DNA of 30,596 bases from an uncultured archaeon (GCA_964476035.1 CAYYZD010000002.1:1-30596), one strand, 5' to 3'; shown: positions 1-17,000, counted from the first letter of the stretch. Numbers and translations: made by a program. The notes: generated by a model from the sequence alone, not told the origin.

Positions 1-1302
1 ATGCAAATTCCACAAGTTTGCAAACCGTTCCCTAATGTACTGTACTACACCTTCCACACTTTCTAAACTTGCATTGCAAGTTAATGAAAGTTCTCCTCCC
101 ACCCTGACTCTTGGGTGATAAACGTTTTCCCTGCCCTTCCTTTCCTTATGCAAATATCCCTTTGCCACCAAACCTTCCAGTTTTTCATAGACTGTCCTCC
201 GTGAATAGCCAAGAAAACTTCCTACAAGGTCAAGTACTTCATTTACAGTTACTCCTCCATCTTGCCCGTCGCACACGTTTTCAACCGTTTTCAGAATGAA
301 CTTCTCTTCTTCGGTTAAATCGAATATCGTCCTCTCAATAGCCCTACTCCCCAACCTCAACGCAATGTACAAGTCTGTTAGGTCGGCTTCATCTCTCTTA
401 TCTTCTGGCTTCTGAAAATACCTACATATTGCGACGATTTTTATCAGTTCACATAGCTTGTCGGGGTCTCTTCGGGATTCGCTTCTATCAGTATTGAACA
501 AGTCGATTAACCTCTCAGCGTAAGGGATTTTCGGATCAACGTTCACTTCTTCAACAAGAATCTTAAATGCAGTTCTCCAAACCTTTAGTTCCTCACTGTC
601 GGGTGATAAAACACTCCTTTTTCCTTCATGTAATCGTAACTTCTCCAGCATTATTTTCTTGGTTAATTCTGGACTGCTTGAAGTTTCTAACCTCCACATT
701 CCACTTTTCAGTGACGGGGAAATGTTCATGACATTCGTAGTGGTAATGATCCCCTTGATTGGCATGTATACTGTCTCAGTAGTCATCCTTTGACTTCTCT
801 AATCCATATATGCATACTCTGAAATTATTCCCCCATCGTCCGCCCTATGTAACCTTAAAGTCCTGCCTATTTCTCCCTGCATCCTTTCAATGTCGGGAAC
901 ATAGAGTAGATCCACGTCTCTTAGGTTTTGAGAGTATCTAAGACTCGCTGGAGTGATGTAACCTCTTTCAATGTACTTTACTGCTTCTCGGAGTAGATCT
1001 AAACTTAGTCTGACCATAGTATCCTTTCCCGTGCCACTTTCACCAACTAACTGGATTAATCCCGTATAGCCTTTTTTTACCCCTAGTATTAGCAACGGTA
1101 GCAGTCTCTTGTTTTGTTCTTCTCCCAAAACAAATCTTGGTCTGTTTATTCTTTGGAGAACCCATCCTTTTTCGAGCAATTTGCCTAGTTCGTAGAAAAA
1201 CATGGGGGATTTAAGCAGTTCCAGTGCTTTTTTACGGATTCTATTTTCTTCCTCTTCTTCACTTCTTATAATGTGCCCCAACCGTCGATAACTTTGACTC
1301 AA
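1..1302 (-). pseudogene. P-loop (AAA+/MCM-like) ATPase, putative replicative helicase of the element, with C-terminal winged helix; 3'-truncated by the window edge; one in-frame TAG at 799-801 (pseudogene, read-through or sequence error)
   Basis: TTG start at 1302 with upstream GGAG(G). Walker A GESGTGKD. Manual translation past the TAG stays open for 266 codons to position 1: ...SEYAYMD*RSQRMTTETVYMPIKGIITTTNVMNISPSLKSGMWRLETSSSPELTKKIMLEK...GVTVNEVLDLVGSFLGYSRRTVYEKLEGLVAKGYLHKERKGRENVYHP... The ORF track shows only the first 167 aa. Confidence 0.75.
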
Positions 1303-1305
1303 CTT

Positions 1306-1527
1306 TTATCCCTCCACCGTGTTCCAAATACTATCTAGGTCTCTCCCGAGTGCAGTGATTTGTTCTTCCTTCTTTTTGGGTTCAATGTAGGGGTTTCTGT
1401 TCATCCAGGCACGGATTATAGCGCGGACGAATTCGCTTCTATTGGCGTAACCAAGTTTCTTGCGAAGATTTTCCAACTGGTCATACATCTCCCTGCTGAG
1501 CGAAATGGTGAGTGTAGTGATTTTCAC
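1306..1527 (-). CDS. Ribbon-helix-helix (CopG/NikR N-terminal-like) transcriptional regulator
   Basis: Beta strand TTLTISL followed by helix-turn-helix with NRSEFVRAII; GAGGTGA RBS upstream of the GTG; stop 3 nt before the ATPase start. Confidence 0.85.
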   Translation of the reverse strand: MKITTLTISLSREMYDQLENLRKKLGYANRSEFVRAIIRAWMNRNPYIEPKKKEEQITALGRDLDSIWNTVEG

Positions 1528-1675
1528 ACTACATCACCTCTATTAGCTGTATTCCATTTGAAAATTATTTTTAAAAGCGTTTATAAAATTATTGTTGTTG
1601 TCATACAATGAGCAGGATGGTTGATGATATATATGTTCGTTTAAACAAAAATATATATCTTGGAGGAAAGTTGAG
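1528..1675. promoter_or_regulatory. Divergent AT-rich promoter region between the two RHH genes
   Basis: AT-rich with TATA-like TTTATAAA and ATATATAT runs; imperfect palindrome TTGTCATACAA near 1597-1607; RBS on both sides. Confidence 0.5.
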
Positions 1676-2134
1676 ATGAGTCGAATCATAACATTCAGAT
1701 TGGAGGAAAAAACGAGAGAAAAATTGGAAAGCCTTTGCAAGAGTCTAGGGCTAACCATATCTGATTTTGTTCGACAGGCAGTCATGAGAGAACTGATGAG
1801 AGAAAGCATAGATTTCAATACGGTTCTCACTGAACTTCTGGTTAGAAACCAGCTAGATACTATATTTTTAGCGAAGCTTTTTGTACAGCAGGACACTGCA
1901 ATTAGGAAAATATTTACAATCCTGAATCGATTGCTGAAACAAATCGACGGAGAACAGTACAAGAGGCAAATGAAGGAAATAGATGAACGGGCAAAGAAAC
2001 TCGACGAAGAACTGACTGAAGAGTTAGACAAGTGGAAAACTGTTCTTTTCTACCTCGCAAATAGGGACTTTAAAGGGCTCAAGGACTATCTTGAGCGTCT
2101 AAGATATCCATTAAGAAGACATGGAGGAAATTGA
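1676..2134 (+). CDS. RHH DNA-binding protein with C-terminal helical/coiled-coil region
   Basis: MSRIITFRLEEKTREKLESLCKSLGLTISDFVRQAV fits the RHH pattern; GGAGG RBS. Confidence 0.8.
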   Translation: MSRIITFRLEEKTREKLESLCKSLGLTISDFVRQAVMRELMRESIDFNTVLTELLVRNQLDTIFLAKLFVQQDTAIRKIFTILNRLLKQIDGEQYKRQMKEIDERAKKLDEELTEELDKWKTVLFYLANRDFKGLKDYLERLRYPLRRHGGN

Positions 2135-2135
2135 C

Positions 2136-3158
2136 ATGGTTTCTAGTCTTCAACAACTCCCACAACAACGTCAACGTCATCATCGAGAGGTAGGGGACGA
2201 TAATAATATCGTAGTCGATCGACGTGACAACAGCGTTGATGACAGCGTCGATGTCTCCGATGTTGATAGACCAGAGTCCCAGTCCCAGCGATATGTCTGT
2301 CCCCACTGTGGAAAGAAATTTGACAGTGAAATGGCACTTGAGATGCATTCAATTAGAGTACATAAACGATCTGCAAAACCAAAAGAAACCAAGAAAGAAG
2401 TCAAGGTAACGAAGGTTCCCCCAATCCGCGAGGAAGGGGAAGCTTTAGTTCCAGACGCCGAGACGCAACTGAAGAATTTTCTAATAACCTTCGGCTTATC
2501 TGAGAGGGATGCGAATGCAACAATTGAATTTCTGAGAGCGTATGGTTTGGATAATTTAGAAAAGCTTAACGAAGCACTAACAGATTTAGGTGTCAGTCTT
2601 TCACGGAGGAAAATCATAATTGAAAGTTGGAGCAACCTTCGAAATATCAAAATTCCACCATCTTTGATGCAGAAGTTGGGGATAAGGCCGGTTATGCGTG
2701 AACAAGTTGAATACGGCTACTACGAATATCCGCAACCACAGAGAAGGACTAATGTTTCTGAAACTGCCGAATTGATACGCGCATTGGCAGAATATCAGAA
2801 AAGTATGAAGGAAAATGTTAATTCCTCCAATGACAACATGTTTTTACTCCAGCAAATACAGGAGTTGAGGCAGCAAAACGAACAGCTGCGTAAAGAACTT
2901 GAGGAACGGGAGAGGAAACGTGAACTTGAGGAAATAAGAAGGGAAATTTTAGATCTTAAAAACTCAACTATTAGGGTGCATAATCAATATACCGTGATTT
3001 CCGACGCAATCCGCGAATTGACTGGACTAATTAGGGAGTATTTTAATTTAGCACGAAGTCTCATTACGGGGAGGATTCGTCCCGAACTTGAAGAGAGCGA
3101 ATCTTCACGCTCATCTGTTTACAAATCTCTTCCCGAAGAACTTGTAGTGGAGGAATGA
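2136..3158 (+). CDS. C2H2 zinc-finger protein with acidic low-complexity N-terminus and C-terminal coiled coil (track start 2121; ATG 2136 preferred)
   Basis: YVCPHCGKKFDSEMALEMHSIRVH = C-x2-C-x12-H-x4-H; GGAGG at 2123-2127 precedes ATG 2136; E/R/Q-rich heptads. Confidence 0.8.
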   Translation: MVSSLQQLPQQRQRHHREVGDDNNIVVDRRDNSVDDSVDVSDVDRPESQSQRYVCPHCGKKFDSEMALEMHSIRVHKRSAKPKETKKEVKVTKVPPIREEGEALVPDAETQLKNFLITFGLSERDANATIEFLRAYGLDNLEKLNEALTDLGVSLSRRKIIIESWSNLRNIKIPPSLMQKLGIRPVMREQVEYGYYEYPQPQRRTNVSETAELIRALAEYQKSMKENVNSSNDNMFLLQQIQELRQQNEQLRKELEERERKRELEEIRREILDLKNSTIRVHNQYTVISDAIRELTGLIREYFNLARSLITGRIRPELEESESSRSSVYKSLPEELVVEE

Positions 3159-3517
3159 AAATGGAAGAGGTGAGAAGGTCTCTTATTGAAACGAGGAAGG
3201 TACTTGAAGATTTGAGAGAAGCACTCGGCATTCCTGTACTCAGAAGGAGATTTAGGGAAATGACGCCACAACTCTCTCCGTCTGTGGAAACACCGACACA
3301 GAAGACGGAGAGAGTGGTAGTGGAGCAACCGACGGAGGAAAGACAAGAAATTGTTGAGAGACCAGTGCAAATACTCAACTTTCCTATACGTAATGCAATT
3401 GCTGGTTTCATCCAATCTTTAGGTGAAGTAGCCAAAAAGAGAGTTGAGATCGAGGAGAAAAGGGTTGAACAGGCTCAGGAAAAAGAGAAATTTGAGTATA
3501 GATCCCTGAGGGGGTGA
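3155..3517 (+). CDS. Hypothetical protein, charged/coiled-coil
   Basis: ATGA overlap with the upstream stop, GGAGG RBS, 120 aa. Confidence 0.7.
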   Translation: MKMEEVRRSLIETRKVLEDLREALGIPVLRRRFREMTPQLSPSVETPTQKTERVVVEQPTEERQEIVERPVQILNFPIRNAIAGFIQSLGEVAKKRVEIEEKRVEQAQEKEKFEYRSLRG

Positions 3518-3523
3518 AGACGG

Positions 3524-3730
3524 ATGAATATTGATTGGAGGACAGTTCTTGAAGTTGGATTGATGGTTGTCACGACTATATTCGCTACACAATGGGGGAA
3601 ACTAAAAGAAAAATTCCACGATTTCAGGAAATTAATAGACACGCTTGATGACGCCGTAGCAGATGATAGGGTAACGAGAGAAGAACTCAAACAAATAATT
3701 CAGCGCATAAAAGAGTTGCTAAGGTGGTGA
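3524..3730 (+). CDS. Small membrane protein (one N-terminal hydrophobic helix plus amphipathic tail)
   Basis: TVLEVGLMVVTTIFATQW hydrophobic segment; GGTGA RBS. Confidence 0.7.
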   Translation: MNIDWRTVLEVGLMVVTTIFATQWGKLKEKFHDFRKLIDTLDDAVADDRVTREELKQIIQRIKELLRW

Positions 3731-3732
3731 AC

Positions 3733-3873
3733 ATGGAGGAAATTAAAAAGCCTGTCTTTTTCATTCTTGAGAGAGTGCATTCAGCATGGATACAGTTGAG
3801 GGAAGTATTTTGGAAGCGAGTGGAGGCTCGAGTGAAAAATGCTGCAGCGAGGATGCGGGAATTTCTACAGTAA
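3733..3873 (+). CDS. 46-aa hypothetical protein not in the ORF track (MEEIKKPVFFILERVHSAWIQLREVFWKRVEARVKNAAARMREFLQ)
   Basis: Manual translation; GGTGA RBS directly upstream; fills the gap between 3730 and the Alba gene exactly. Confidence 0.6.
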   Translation: MEEIKKPVFFILERVHSAWIQLREVFWKRVEARVKNAAARMREFLQ

Positions 3874-3874
3874 C

Positions 3875-4114
3875 TTGGTTGTGATCGGAAAGAAACCGTT
3901 ACGTAACTATATTTATGCTGTCCTTGAAAGACTGAGTCGAAGTGGTAAGGCAGTTGTCGCAGCGAAGGGAAATTTAATCGGGAAGGCATGTACCGTTGTG
4001 GAATTTATAAGGCAAAGGTACCCGCAAGTACGGGTTGAAAGGATTTTCCTTGACTCCGAAAACTACGAGAACCGCGTAATCCCTAGATTGCGAATTATTT
4101 TGCTACGCAGTTAA
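3875..4114 (+). CDS. Divergent Alba-family nucleic-acid-binding (chromatin) protein (track start 3839; TTG 3875 or GTG 3881 more likely)
   Basis: VVIGKKPLRNYIYAVL...VVAAKGNLIGKACTVVEFIRQRY matches the Alba consensus VxIGKKPvmNYVlAvl...ikARGraIskAVdvvEivrnrF. Confidence 0.8.
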   Translation: MVVIGKKPLRNYIYAVLERLSRSGKAVVAAKGNLIGKACTVVEFIRQRYPQVRVERIFLDSENYENRVIPRLRIILLRS

Positions 4115-4287
4115 AACTGCACGCACTTAAACCCGTTAGATGATGATTTTTTGATGTTCCGCATGCATTTAAACCGTTTTTTATCGGAGGTATTCACGCA
4201 AAACACGGAGGAAAATGGTTTAACACATTAAATTTCAATTGTGTAATTCTGGTAACATGATCATGGTCGGGTTTTAAGGTTTTTGTC

Positions 4288-4584
4288 GTGTGTTTTGAGG
4301 TAAGGGTAAGATTGTACATAAACTTTACACTGATTGGAGCATCAGAAGTAACAAGAAATTCGATGAGTTATTTGAAGAATACAAACTTCACATTTACCGA
4401 GTCATGGCTTTATAATAGCTATGAGACGTGGGTACAAGGGTCTGTGTGGAGGTTCCGTTTACCAACGGCTTACGATGCCTATTTCATCACCATACCTGCT
4501 GGAACCCATGTCTACTACATAGACTTCCAATTAAATACGCAATGCACAAGCTTGGAATATGCTGTGTGGTTCCAAAATGAATGA
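4288..4584 (+). CDS. Hypothetical aromatic-rich beta-strand protein, possibly the remnant of a gene starting at ATG 4215
   Basis: 98-aa ORF with protein-like composition but no RBS at 4288; GGAGG+ATG at 4215 is immediately followed by a stop. Confidence 0.35.
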   Translation: MCFEVRVRLYINFTLIGASEVTRNSMSYLKNTNFTFTESWLYNSYETWVQGSVWRFRLPTAYDAYFITIPAGTHVYYIDFQLNTQCTSLEYAVWFQNE

Positions 4585-4985
4585 ACCACTCCTATTTTAT
4601 TTTGTTGTGTTGGGTAAAACCATCGATTGCTGAGTATTTTTGTCGGTTCCAATTAGCAAGAATAGGGTATGCTTTACAAACGCAAAGAATGAATGAGTGT
4701 TTTCCTGCTTTTTTACTCGTTTCAAAGGTTTCTGGATGTCGTTTCGACATGCTCAGGGATGACTGAATTTTACTCGTTTTATCTATGTGCAACATGGCAG
4801 AATCAGCAATTTTTATACACTGCGGCGAGATTAATATATATGGGTGTGCAGGTTTGCTGATTGCAATTGAGAGAAAAGCCCATTCCTGTCGTCTCTTGCG
4901 GAAAGAAGAAAGGATATTCCGAGTCTAATTGTAATGTTTTGGTCACTACAAAATTATATGATTTTAGTATTGTGGTCGTGATTGC

Positions 4986-5609
4986 ATGTTCCCTCGTAAA
5001 AAGCTGGAGATGCTACTTGAAAAGTTAAGAGGACATCCTGATCCCCATGTGCTGCTTGAACAGTATACTATTCCAGCTAGAGTTGCTGCTAATATTCTTT
5101 TTATTGCTTGTTATGTTTATGGAGATATTAAAGGGAAAGTTGTTTATGATCTGGGTTGTGGTACTGGAAGACTGGCTATTGGGGCTGCTATTTTGGGTGC
5201 TCGTAGAGTGATTGGTGTTGATGTAGATCCAAAAGCCTTAAGAGTTGCTCGTATTAATTCTGTGATTGCTGGTGTGGTAAGTAAGGTTGAGTGGATATTA
5301 GGTGACGTTGAACATTTGAGTGGTAAATGTGACGTGGTGGTTCAAAATCCACCTTTTGGCGTACAGAGGCGTGGTGCAGATAGAAAATTTATTGTAAAGG
5401 CCCTAGAAATCGGGTCTGTAATTTATTCGTTACACAAATCTAATGAAGAAAGTAGGAAGTTTATTAGGAGACTTGTTAAAAAATATGGTGGTAGGATTGA
5501 TGTGATAATTTGTATGGATCTTCCTCTTCGCCCAGTCTTCCCGTTCCATCGGAAACGTATTCATGTAGTTAAAGTTGATCTCTATAGAATTGTTAAGGGG
5601 GGTATTTAA
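4986..5609 (+). CDS. METTL5-like (COG2263) SAM-dependent N6-adenine RNA methyltransferase
   Basis: LEQYTIP, DLGCGTG SAM-binding motif, NPPFG catalytic motif; conserved position upstream of csl4. Confidence 0.9.
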   Translation: MFPRKKLEMLLEKLRGHPDPHVLLEQYTIPARVAANILFIACYVYGDIKGKVVYDLGCGTGRLAIGAAILGARRVIGVDVDPKALRVARINSVIAGVVSKVEWILGDVEHLSGKCDVVVQNPPFGVQRRGADRKFIVKALEIGSVIYSLHKSNEESRKFIRRLVKKYGGRIDVIICMDLPLRPVFPFHRKRIHVVKVDLYRIVKGGI

Positions 5610-14076: not shown

Positions 14077-17000
14077 TTAATCCAGAACTATAACCCTGGT
14101 TTCTAAGGTATACCCCTTTGCAAAATTAATTGTTATAATTATTATTTTACTACCTATTACCGACGTACAATTGAATACTTTTAGTGTAGTTGAGTTCCCC
14201 GGATATATAATGGTCGACCCATTAAATTCGCAAACTGTACCGTTAATTTTAATTGTTGATATTTCTAGCTGCTCTATGCCAAGGTTTGTAACATTTATAA
14301 TCACTGTTCCATTTGTAAATGCTTTAGCACTAATATTGGCAAAAGGTACCACCGCGACCTTTGTTACTGAAGTTTTGTTCGACCACCGCGGTACAAAGCT
14401 GAAATTGTAATACACTGTAACATTCACTATCTGTGAAACGTTAAGAACAAGACCTGTACTCACCTTTAGTACAGCAGTTTCACCACTACTTAGCGTGGAA
14501 CTTCCACTAACTGTCTCAAAACTGTAAAGAGTTCCATTAACGGCAATGTTACTGATATTCAGCGGCAAATCCATGGGATTAGCAACTGTTATGGTTACGA
14601 CTCCGTTAGTATATGCTGTTGCACTCTTGACGTGAAGAATAAGTGATGGAGTTGGAGCAACGCTGACATTTGCGGTGGTTGTTAATGTTCTGTTTGGGGC
14701 ACCTACTGGATGATAAGTTACGTTTACTGCCACCGTTAGTCCCTTTAGTTTTGAAGTTTCGTTGAAACCTAGGTCTATTACAAAAACCGATTCCTCTTGC
14801 GGGAAAATCGCTAATGAACCATTAAATATATTAAAAACAGTCTCTGTTGAGTTTATTTTAATAGAATCAACTGTAACTGGATAGCCTCCAATATTTTTAA
14901 CCCGAATAAAGCCTATACCGTTATCATAAACTATAGACCTTGTTTCATCGATATCAAGAGATATCTGAGGAGTTTCAAGAATATTGGCGTTTACGGATTT
15001 ATAAATTCTGTAGCCAGGATACTCCGGAACATCTGCTATAACTTTAATTGATACATTATCACCAATAAACCATTTTTTTCCAGTATTAACGAAAAGATCG
15101 ATTGCTTCTTTTGGTTTTAGTGTTTGTTCGTCACCTATAATCTCAAAGCTATATGTTTTACCATCTATATAAACCTTTGAGAGAGAAATTTCATGAATGC
15201 CTGTATTATTGACTTTTATAATAAACAGTCCATTAGCATACGGATTAACCTCTACTATTTCCATCCTTGCTTCCAATATGCTATAGTTCACCTCGTATAT
15301 CTTAACAAATCGGTTACTCGAAAAGTAAGCTGGCTTAAATATTTTCTCGAAAAGCGTCCAGTGTCCCGGATCGACAATTAAAGTTAAGTATCCGTAGGGA
15401 TCCGAGCGGTAAAACAGGTACTTGTCAGCCAAATTATTTCTTTGTATGAAATCTATCAAGTATCCGCAATACCTACTACTACGATCAGGTTCCCCGTAGA
15501 AAAGCATTTTATAGATTGTAGAGTTAAGTAGTGTTCCAGTTGGATTGGTGATTTCTCCGTAAAGACTTTCATTTATTAGCTCTGGGAAATGGTCCTCCGC
15601 GATTCTAACCATCCATGGCCACTTAAACTCGTCACCACCAAGTCCTTGGTAGCAGTATCCGAAAAAGACAAGCACATGCGTTACGTTGTATCGTTTGTAG
15701 ATCTTTACCGCTTCTGTTTCATTTAGCGCAAATGCTGCCCCCATCCATGCGATTTGTGTACTGTTAAGGGTTGCATTGTCAACCAGTGTTGTTTTGTTGG
15801 CCACGGTGTTTATCCAATATCCATAGTCCCACCAAGAAGCTACTATCGCATCTTCTGGTAGATTATATCGCATCCACATAAGAGTTTCTTGCCAATCTGG
15901 CTCCCCGTTAGGTAACATTTCTACCCCGGCCATGTATTTTGACGAAACATAGGCCCCATAATATGTTGTTATGATAAGTAATGATGCGATGAAAATTAGA
16001 GTTATAATCGTATATTCTGTGCCGACAATACCTGAAATCCTCGCTCTTTTCCGTCTTGCCAAAGGCATACCTTCACGTATTTCTGTCAAGACGCCTACAA
16101 ATGGAGAGAGGATTTGATCGATGGCATATGCTGAAAGAAGACAGACTACTGGCGAAAGTATTAATACTAATCTTATCATTGATCCAGCAAAGTATGTGGC
16201 CGTTAACCCCAGAACTATAAGAAAGATGTCTTCATTTCTTAAACGTTTAAACGAAAAATATATTCCAAGTGGATATATAAACAAGAGAATGTGTAGATTG
16301 AAGTAGAATTCAGACCATGAAGTGGCTGCATGCTCTGCTACTGAAGCTATTATACGCGCTTTTTCCCTATATAAAGGATTTAATACCGTCAAGAATTTTC
16401 CACTTATAGGCTTTATATATTTCTCCAGGATTTCAACAAAAGAAAATCCAGTATACCATGAATATGTAAAAACGAAAGATACCATTACAGCGAAGGTCAA
16501 AATTATGTACCCTAGAATTCTTCTTTGAATCTTAACCTCTATAATTCGTTTAGCTACTGATGAATTATACACCGTTGGAATTGCTTCATAAATAAATAAC
16601 AATATTAGCATAGCTAGGGCTGGAAGCAGATCAGTTTTAGTTAATATAGCTGGTCCGAGTCTTGGTACCCTTGTAGCTATAAGGAAACCAATGCTTATCG
16701 TTGTAGTATAAGATAAAAGAAGTGATCTGGAATATCTATGCGAAATGAGAAGTAAGAACGCATAAACAGCTAGTAAACCATACACATACACATATGCTCC
16801 CCATGATGCCGATAAATATCCAAGAACGAGCCCCGCAATAACCCCTGAAAGTATTGACTCCCTTTTTAATGATCTTATAAAGAAATATAGAGTCGCTATT
16901 ATTAGTAAAATGCCTATTGCTTCGTTGTCGTAAAAACCTGCAGTTGTACGTTGAACATATCCTGGTACAAATGCAAGGAAGAAAGCTGCAAGTAATCCCG

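Follow-up and report, generated by a model that had tools for sequence, protein, structure and literature searches.

A probable defective integrated plasmid-like element with an MCM-fold replication helicase in the enolase-methylase spacer of a Baldrarchaeia archaeon

The DNA analysed here, called the window throughout, is a stretch of 30,596 nucleotides from an uncultured archaeon (CAYYZD010000002.1:1-30596 of GCA_964476035.1) and constitutes the whole of contig C2 of the metagenome-assembled genome (MAG) G000 (1.38 Mb, 161 contigs, 82% complete). An original prediction, made from the sequence alone, had proposed that its left end holds an uncharacterised integrated element lying beside a conserved gene cluster that opens with a methylase gene. 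Because the window is an entire contig, base 1 is an end of the assembly and not of the element, which is cut at that base. The gene module named in the prediction (ATPase, two ribbon-helix-helix (RHH) proteins, C2H2 zinc finger, coiled coil, membrane protein, 46-aa protein and Alba) is present in full and as placed. Its description of tightly packed genes with strong ribosome-binding sites was also borne out: the rightward genes overlap or are separated by gaps of 6 nt or less, with GGAGG/GGTGA-type sites before nearly every start. The G+C content is 0.41-0.43 over positions 1-4500 as against about 0.37 in the rest of the window. We compared the window with three genomes of the same genus as G000 (G001-G003) and one of a neighbouring family in the same order (G004); with public runs (X1, X2, X4 and X5), compared as Logan contigs aligned to the window, so that statements about them cover the contig pieces listed; and with other copies of the element, above all L042, a 63.5-kb JGI metagenome contig of a sister species. 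The features are as follows.

1-1302, minus strand: Rep, the first 434 codons of a 560-aa replication helicase, with ATPase and winged helix-turn-helix in one frame; the 3' end lies off the contig
799-801, minus strand: amber codon TAG in the Rep frame, between Walker B and sensor 1
1306-1527, minus strand: RHH protein (CopG-type), 73 aa, directly upstream of Rep (PF01402, E 2.7e-9)
1528-1675: AT-rich divergent region between the two RHH genes, defined by position only, with an AT-rich near-palindrome inside
1676-2134, plus strand: RHH/NikA-like protein, 152 aa, opening the rightward operon (PF21983, E 4.7e-6; PF01402, E 5.5e-6)
2121 or 2136 to 3158, plus strand: zinc-finger protein of the C2H2 type, 340-345 aa, which also contains a long coiled coil (matches to zf-C2H2 models at E 4e-4 to 2e-3, under their cut-offs)
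3155-3517, plus strand: coiled-coil protein without known family, 118-120 aa, present in L042 and L067
3524-3730, plus strand: protein of 68 aa that has a single hydrophobic helix near its N-terminus and also occurs in L042 and L067; weak PHROG match only
3724 or 3733 to 3873, plus strand: open reading frame (ORF) of 46-49 aa overlapping the Alba start (46 aa in L067, 39 aa in L042)
3839-4114, plus strand: element-borne divergent Alba, 91 aa (PF01918, E 1.6e-7, 31.4 bits against a cut-off of 25)
4115-4283: non-coding stretch common to the complete element; similarity to L042 stops at 4283
4288-4584, plus strand: cargo-gene remnant encoding the C-terminal 96 aa, with the 5' part deleted; the full gene encodes 166-172 aa
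4750-4815: block resembling the right-end part of the complete element (75% over 63 nt), not significant against shuffles
4816-4958: zone that must contain the right junction, with no recognisable L042-type arm or core
4959-5609, plus strand: host DNA, comprising the promoter-proximal 27 nt and a class I methyltransferase gene (4986-5609) that opens a conserved host cluster

The inserted state was assessed by comparison with genomes in which the site is empty. In G001-G003 the methylase gene is conserved (82-89% amino-acid identity) and the cluster to its right follows in the same order. In these three genomes and in G004, a divergent enolase gene lies about 90-100 bp to the left of the methylase, at the place where the window carries the element. 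Nucleotide homology between the window and the genomes of its relatives begins at about 4945-4958, that is, 27-40 nt before the methylase start. Sister-species contigs from runs X2, X4 and X5 match the window from 4959 rightward and have empty-site sequence to the left of that position. Neither element DNA nor Rep was found in G001, G003 or G004; G002 contains only a distant relative, on another contig. These sequence comparisons support the integrated element of the original prediction: foreign, integrative DNA would occupy the window from base 1 to about 4815-4958, in what is the enolase-methylase spacer of sister species. The window copy would correspond to the right-hand two-thirds or so of an element of 6.6-7.2 kb. 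The prediction had let the module end 400-850 bp before the methylase gene. This holds for the genes it listed but not for the end of the element, in view of the cargo-gene remnant at 4288-4584; the right boundary falls somewhere in 4816-4958, and the similarity at 4750-4810 only hints that the element reaches to about 4815.

A complete copy was reached through the interrupted Rep gene. Reading through the amber codon (TAG as X) led to P0002, a homologue of 560 aa, and then to L024, a 6737-bp ENA contig that holds all the genes of the window copy together with an 82-aa gene and a 465-aa integrase. L024 is 100% identical to L042 9876-16612; it shows the element as integrated, flanked left and right by 45 nt of host sequence. 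In L042 the order is host genes, the integrase gene int (465 aa), the 82-aa gene, Rep (560 aa), the 73-aa RHH gene, the 152-aa RHH gene, the zinc-finger gene, the small genes, Alba and host DNA; RadA, two proteasome alpha subunits and an Arf/Ras-type GTPase lie on one side, 90 nt of host DNA on the other. The integrase comprises SAM-like and catalytic domains (PF00589, E 3.1e-16; PF02899, E 7.2e-6). The original prediction had reported no integrase piece in the window, and there is indeed none in the contig; the gene lies beyond the contig end, as seen in the complete copy.

The limits of the L042 element could be set exactly. Its host part is 80-82% identical to contigs C26 and C9 of G000, and C9 runs uninterrupted through the insertion point. 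A 10-bp direct repeat, ATAAAGAATG, bounds the element (L042 9921-9930 and 16558-16567) and gives it a length of 6637 bp. The corresponding attachment (att) site of the host, attB (TAAAGAATG), is uninterrupted at 15338-15346 of G000 contig C9, with flanks matching both sides; the window's own genome is thus empty there, and the same attB is uninterrupted in G001 and G002 too. The ends of two G003 contigs (C72 and C177; L064 and L065) both lie within about 55 nt of this site, which may reflect an occupied or mixed site. The rebuilt attP consists of inverted 18-bp arms, CAACAGGTTGAATGATAA and TTATCATCCAACCTATTG, complementary at 16 of 18 positions, around the 6-nt spacer AGAATG; no inverted repeat of this quality occurs elsewhere in the linear 16.6-kb locus. 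The insertion site itself, an AT-rich core, precedes the GTPase start by 36 nt and int by 70 nt. The int gene remains whole (465 aa) in the integrated L042 copy, and the integration is therefore not of the SSV type.

L029, a relative whose Rep is 65% identical and whose integrase is different, occupies an AT-rich spacer elsewhere, which is empty in G000 (contig C54, about 3284). No tRNA gene or fragment of one was found in the window (ARAGORN), and no tRNA gene in L042, L029, L031, L027 or the empty sites L020-L022, and Rfam gave no match in window 1-5300 at E≤1. The prediction that no tRNA gene serves as att site was thus confirmed at all three insertion sites examined. In the whole MAG, ARAGORN with bacterial settings reported only three tRNA genes, and enolase was not found; the assembly lacks much that is needed for att-site testing.

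The window copy and the complete copy alternate between near identity and divergence. Their nucleotide identity, by window interval, is as follows.

1-2600: 97-100% per 200-nt bin, mostly 99-100%
2600-3200 (C-terminal half of the zinc-finger protein): 70-81%
3200-3800: 100%
3800-4200 (Alba): 73-77%
after 4283: unalignable except for the weak 63-nt block at 4750-4810

The right arm also varies like a cassette: window 3569-4121, which holds small genes and Alba, is exchanged for 542 other letters in runs X1, X4 and X5. Run contigs also contain a joint '4276>4778'; its sides are only 18-30 nt long, and it is best read as an L042-type variant and not as an excision.

Three properties bear on whether the window copy is intact. 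First, the amber codon at 799-801 interrupts Rep. The homologue P0002 has Gln at this position, and runs X1, X4 and X5 read CAG; the TAG is kept in the independent JGI contig L066, where it yields genes of 167 and 252 aa, and in run X2 with its window-identical contigs. A sense reading of TAG is not supported, no search for Pyl genes having been made: the codon is CAG in the runs just named, and in the window TAG serves as an ordinary stop, closing 7 of 32 long ORFs. Second, the cargo gene is truncated. Its five homologues (P0053-P0057; 117-172 aa, 60-93% identical) are 70-76 residues longer at the N-terminus. The full-length proteins (166-172 aa) begin with a membrane anchor, which the ORF in the window does not have. 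In L069 the full cargo gene comes after an Alba-like gene, and a contig of run X1 continues from 4304 into sequence resembling the region upstream of the full gene. From the longer homologues, L069 and the X1 contig, it follows that ORF 4288-4584 is a 5'-deleted cargo gene of an element variant. A model of the cargo protein showed a low-confidence, generic beta-sandwich (mean pLDDT 62.7) with no PDB match at E≤0.001. Third, the window has no recognisable right arm or core. Taken together, the amber codon, the truncated cargo gene and this lack make the window copy best read as defective, and it is probably also fixed in place.

The Rep fragment in the window is 99% identical to P0002 over all its 434 residues. 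A model of Rep built on 20 homologues (pLDDT 76.5) was compared with known structures, and the top 50 matches were all MCM chains (VIA Z 16.9-18.3, 270-308 residues aligned). For most of them the root-mean-square deviation was 3.4-4.6 Å, with model residues ~15-420 lying on the AAA+ domain and winged helix of archaeal and eukaryotic MCM. The ATPase core of Rep starts at residue ~47, after two helices, and the matches begin at MCM residues ~260-480, past the N-terminal domain; the OB-fold/zinc domain at the N-terminus of MCM has no counterpart in the Rep model. At the sequence level the likeness is not seen: the MCM family PF00493 gave no match in the window Rep at E≤1 or in the 20 homologues at E≤0.01, and a Rep profile run against PDB sequences found the winged helix only and no MCM core. 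In the alignment as read, Rep has no Arg at the SRF arginine-finger position. As judged from the model, Rep is a divergent MCM-fold AAA+ helicase with a winged helix. Plasmids and proviruses of archaea that encode an MCM use an AAA+ helicase with a C-terminal winged helix as their sole replication protein; unlike these, the present Rep has no detectable MCM sequence signature and no N-terminal OB-fold/zinc domain.

An exhaustive profile search showed how far this Rep extends: 91 clusters matched at E≤1e-30 and 431 at E≤1e-10, many of them proteins of 800-1100 aa in which the Rep part is C-terminal. Four of ten long proteins start with a Prim-Pol domain, and two of 20 close homologues are fused to Prim-Pol or PriCT; a PriL-like domain occurs in one protein. 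Such fusions in relatives fix a role of the family in replication initiation. The pRN1-type Reps join Prim-Pol and PriCT-1 to a superfamily 3 (SF3) helicase, and relatives of the present Rep are likewise fused to Prim-Pol and PriCT-1, the helicase in this case not being SF3. The named genomes that carry the family are mostly Bathyarchaeia, with Baldrarchaeota, a Thermoproteota MAG and Methanophagales as the others. Rep was not found in PLSDB plasmids or in INPHARED phages and archaeal viruses (tblastn), nor in IMG/VR, and the integrase was found neither in IMG/VR nor in INPHARED. Across the wider family only Rep and, in some relatives, the integrase are conserved; the rightward operon is not. 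A second member within the genus (L037; G002 contig C6, 1387-5040) encodes, after a Rep of 599 aa at 50% identity, a protein of 80 aa and an integrase of 499 aa (35% identity). An integrated relative with a 56%-identical Rep also occurs on a 646-kb contig of the Thermoproteota MAG S9B7_HD70 (L027, JAPDJW010000002.1). There it is accompanied by an 889-aa SHOCT-domain protein, the Holliday junction resolvase Hjc and a 459-aa integrase-like gene, and the resolvase-integrase pair recalls the Yucahu-i element discussed below.

The remaining genes point to DNA binding and control. The position of the 73-aa RHH gene is conserved in L024, L042 and L066 (in L042 the gene was not called and was read from the identical L024). 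The related element L029 encodes a 354-aa homologue of the zinc-finger protein; an atlas look-up for the latter returned scores at chance level only. The Alba of the element is a paralogue of the host Alba (G000 contig C37), with 35% identity. From family membership, the RHH pair may control the divergent promoters, and the zinc-finger and coiled-coil proteins together with Alba may serve in DNA binding and maintenance. By its position, the region 1528-1675 presumably contains promoters and possibly an origin. The 152-aa RHH gene is itself variable: in L066 (1648-2105, equal to window 1676-2134) it is split into genes of 82 and 54 aa, and in runs X4 and X5 it carries a compensating +1/-1 indel pair at window 1932/1936.

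Outside G000, at least eight genomes of the phylum (G002, G026, G254 and five of genus g9) contain matches of 34-46 nt to the near-palindrome at 1547-1592, at 83-89% identity. These matches sit outside CRISPR arrays and may represent chance AT-richness or a common promoter-like motif; as a spacer, the recurrent 46-nt match was rejected in favour of an AT-rich stretch. The search of CRISPR spacers proposed with the original prediction brought no support, as G000 has no array and the 400 genomes of the phylum gave no spacer-like match: all matches were below 94% identity except one exact word of 22 nt, and all had E>1e-6.

The host, which the original prediction had called possibly Asgard, is on sequence comparison a Baldrarchaeia (Asgard) archaeon. 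Contig C6 of G002 is base-for-base identical to JAEOSG010000012.1 of Candidatus Baldrarchaeota archaeon Yap30.bin4.67, and G000 is placed in the same genus (the tool's own genus label). G000 also encodes the ESCRT-II protein EAP30, above the Pfam cut-off. A search of G000 for profilin gave no match and is uninformative, since the control matched nowhere either.

We conclude, with a probability of about 0.72, that the window begins with a defective integrated plasmid-like element of Baldrarchaeia, a 'cryptic integrated element', located in the enolase-methylase spacer. In an intact copy, the integrase would recombine at the 10-bp core, with the arms as its binding sites, and the excised circle would be replicated by Rep. 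Rep would probably bind the origin via its winged helix and recruit the host primase and polymerase, as suggested by the lack of the Prim-Pol domain found in its relatives; the RHH proteins could set copy number or the balance of integration and excision. No capsid, portal, terminase or packaging ATPase was recognised by Pfam or PHROGs. With no capsid or packaging gene found, 'virus' has no positive support and a plasmid-like element is the better reading; of the 'virus or plasmid' of the original prediction, the second half is thus favoured.

Several observations weigh against this conclusion. The left junction is absent from the window and from the whole 82%-complete MAG, and the leftward extension suggested with the original prediction failed within it: the contig start shares no k-mer overlap with any other G000 contig, and attempts to reconstruct the junction failed. 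A tblastn search of G000 recovered neither enolase nor its neighbours; the one gene it did find lies about 7.5 kb beyond enolase and is cut at the end of contig C6. With the left junction unseen and enolase absent, an insertion is not distinguishable from an insertion plus rearrangement or deletion. On the right, exact words, local alignment and shuffles revealed nothing above chance that resembles an L042-type arm or core in window 4284-4990, and as 4284-4958 is mostly unalignable to the intact copy, the exact right boundary and the att of the window copy are not fixed. The interval 4878-4958 is not bridged by the contig pieces listed, which stop at 4807-4877 and resume at 4959 as sister-species sequence, and two metagenome pattern scans (of the junction zone and of 4722-4749) gave no match. 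No circular form was seen: L024 has no terminal overlap, and the predicted attP junction does not occur in IMG/VR. The integrase of the element was not found in the MAG either, where the only related sequence is a 32%-identical integrase on contig C36. This second tyrosine integrase (L046, C36 3276-4244), with small ORFs and a weak RHH match beside it, probably belongs to another mobile element.

An unlikely alternative is that the element is a provirus of an unknown small archaeal virus, with a structural protein that has diverged beyond recognition among the small proteins or in the zinc-finger/coiled-coil protein. A set of C2H2, RHH and small membrane proteins with an integrase is typical of small archaeal viruses as well, and the PHROG matches are weak only. 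The lack of a capsid, portal, terminase or packaging ATPase recognisable by Pfam or PHROGs speaks against a provirus, as do the missing conservation of the rightward operon across the wider family, the absence of Rep and integrase from IMG/VR and INPHARED, and the fact that the beta-sandwich cargo gene is optional and truncated in the window.

Somewhat less likely still is an assembly artefact, by which an element that is episomal, integrated elsewhere or present in another strain was misjoined to the methylase contig. The element does lie at a contig end, the same samples contain several mosaic variants alongside sister species, the right arm and core that one would expect are lacking, and 4878-4958 is unbridged among the contig pieces listed. 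Yet between the last element-like block and the start of host homology lie about 140 nt of unique sequence (4816-4958), and such a stretch would not arise from a k-mer misjoin. In run X2, window-identical element contigs (depth 5.4-7.6) and host contigs (4.5-8.9) were called equal in depth, and the family is integrative at two other spacers of this host genus. That the module is merely an ordinary part of the conserved host genome beside the information-processing cluster, the synteny of core genes against which the original prediction had set its own claim, can be dismissed almost entirely. Nothing was found in its favour; the module was not found in G001, G003 or G004, G002 has only a distant relative elsewhere, all of them have enolase at the site, a near-identical copy lies at a different place in the sister species, and the empty sites refute it.

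A defective integrated plasmid-like element fits well among known archaeal systems. Integrated mobile genetic elements (MGEs) have been described in Atabeyarchaeia, among them Yucahu-i of 10.9 kb (Valentin-Alvarado et al. 2024, Genome Res; PMC11529989), in which the integrase is the first gene and the att is an 11-bp AT-rich motif outside tRNA genes. The present element resembles Yucahu-i in being a small plasmid-like Asgard element with a tyrosine integrase, HTH/RHH proteins and a replicative helicase. It differs in belonging to another Asgard class and in its MCM-fold Rep, the Yucahu-i helicase being reported as SF3; Yucahu-i, for its part, carries a Holliday junction resolvase and a type IIG restriction-modification gene and has no Alba. 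The elements of that study are reported to have no nucleotide similarity to earlier ones, and they are set apart from the present element by description. The 'cryptic integrated elements' of Thaumarchaeota (Krupovic et al. 2019; PMC6563490) likewise combine an integrase, a replication protein (MCM, Orc1 or primpol-helicase) and poorly annotated genes without a capsid; 15 of 68 elements there are intergenic, with att down to 8 bp, and comparison of occupied and empty sites in relatives is an approach common to that study and ours. Their hosts belong to another phylum and their MCMs are full-length and host-derived, whereas the present Rep has no N-terminal domain and is missed by the Pfam MCM model.

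As to the integrase, it shares with the SSV- and pNOB8-type enzymes (reviewed by Badel et al. 2021; PMC8371274) that it is a tyrosine recombinase of an archaeal MGE with site-specific integration. As read from the sequence, its box II region is H-x-x-R, as opposed to K-x-x-R in SSV and Y-x-x-R in pNOB8, and its target is a promoter-proximal spacer. Intergenic AT-rich att sites are also listed in that review. Since short, AT-rich, intergenic att sites have been published for Asgard archaea and Thaumarchaeota and in the review (PMC11529989, PMC6563490, PMC8371274), the target is not unusual, contrary to what the original prediction had supposed. Its suggestion of an undescribed family fared better, as Rep has no match in the Pfam MCM model, PLSDB, INPHARED or IMG/VR. 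Asgard MGEs that bear an integrase and have no capsid genes were also reported in 2026 (PMC13700489), and some of them may belong to the present family. The kind of element is thus known; what appears to be undescribed is the family, together with its headless MCM-fold Rep and Alba.

For the annotation of the host, the finding is a warning: the opening 4.8 kb of this contig do not consist of host genes, and none of the Alba, zinc-finger and ATPase genes found there should be counted as Asgard core or 'eukaryote-like' genes. The intact copy provides a small, fully delimited element with exact attP, attB, attL and attR, directly testable with purified integrase. Its Rep would be a compact MCM-fold helicase that, provided it is active at all, manages without the N-terminal domain by which cellular MCM is loaded and oriented. 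With its 91 clusters at E≤1e-30, the Rep family connects the mobilomes of Asgard archaea, Bathyarchaeia and Methanophagales and does not occur in the plasmid and virus reference sets searched. As a tentative view, for which we would give somewhat less than even odds, these elements may represent an undescribed and fairly widespread family of small archaeal integrative replicons. Such a family would be defined by a headless MCM-fold Rep, which lacks the N-terminal domain, escapes MCM sequence models and exists either by itself or joined to Prim-Pol; its members would pass between Baldrarchaeia, Bathyarchaeia and Methanophagales, target 10-bp AT-rich cores immediately before host genes, and carry an Alba of their own.

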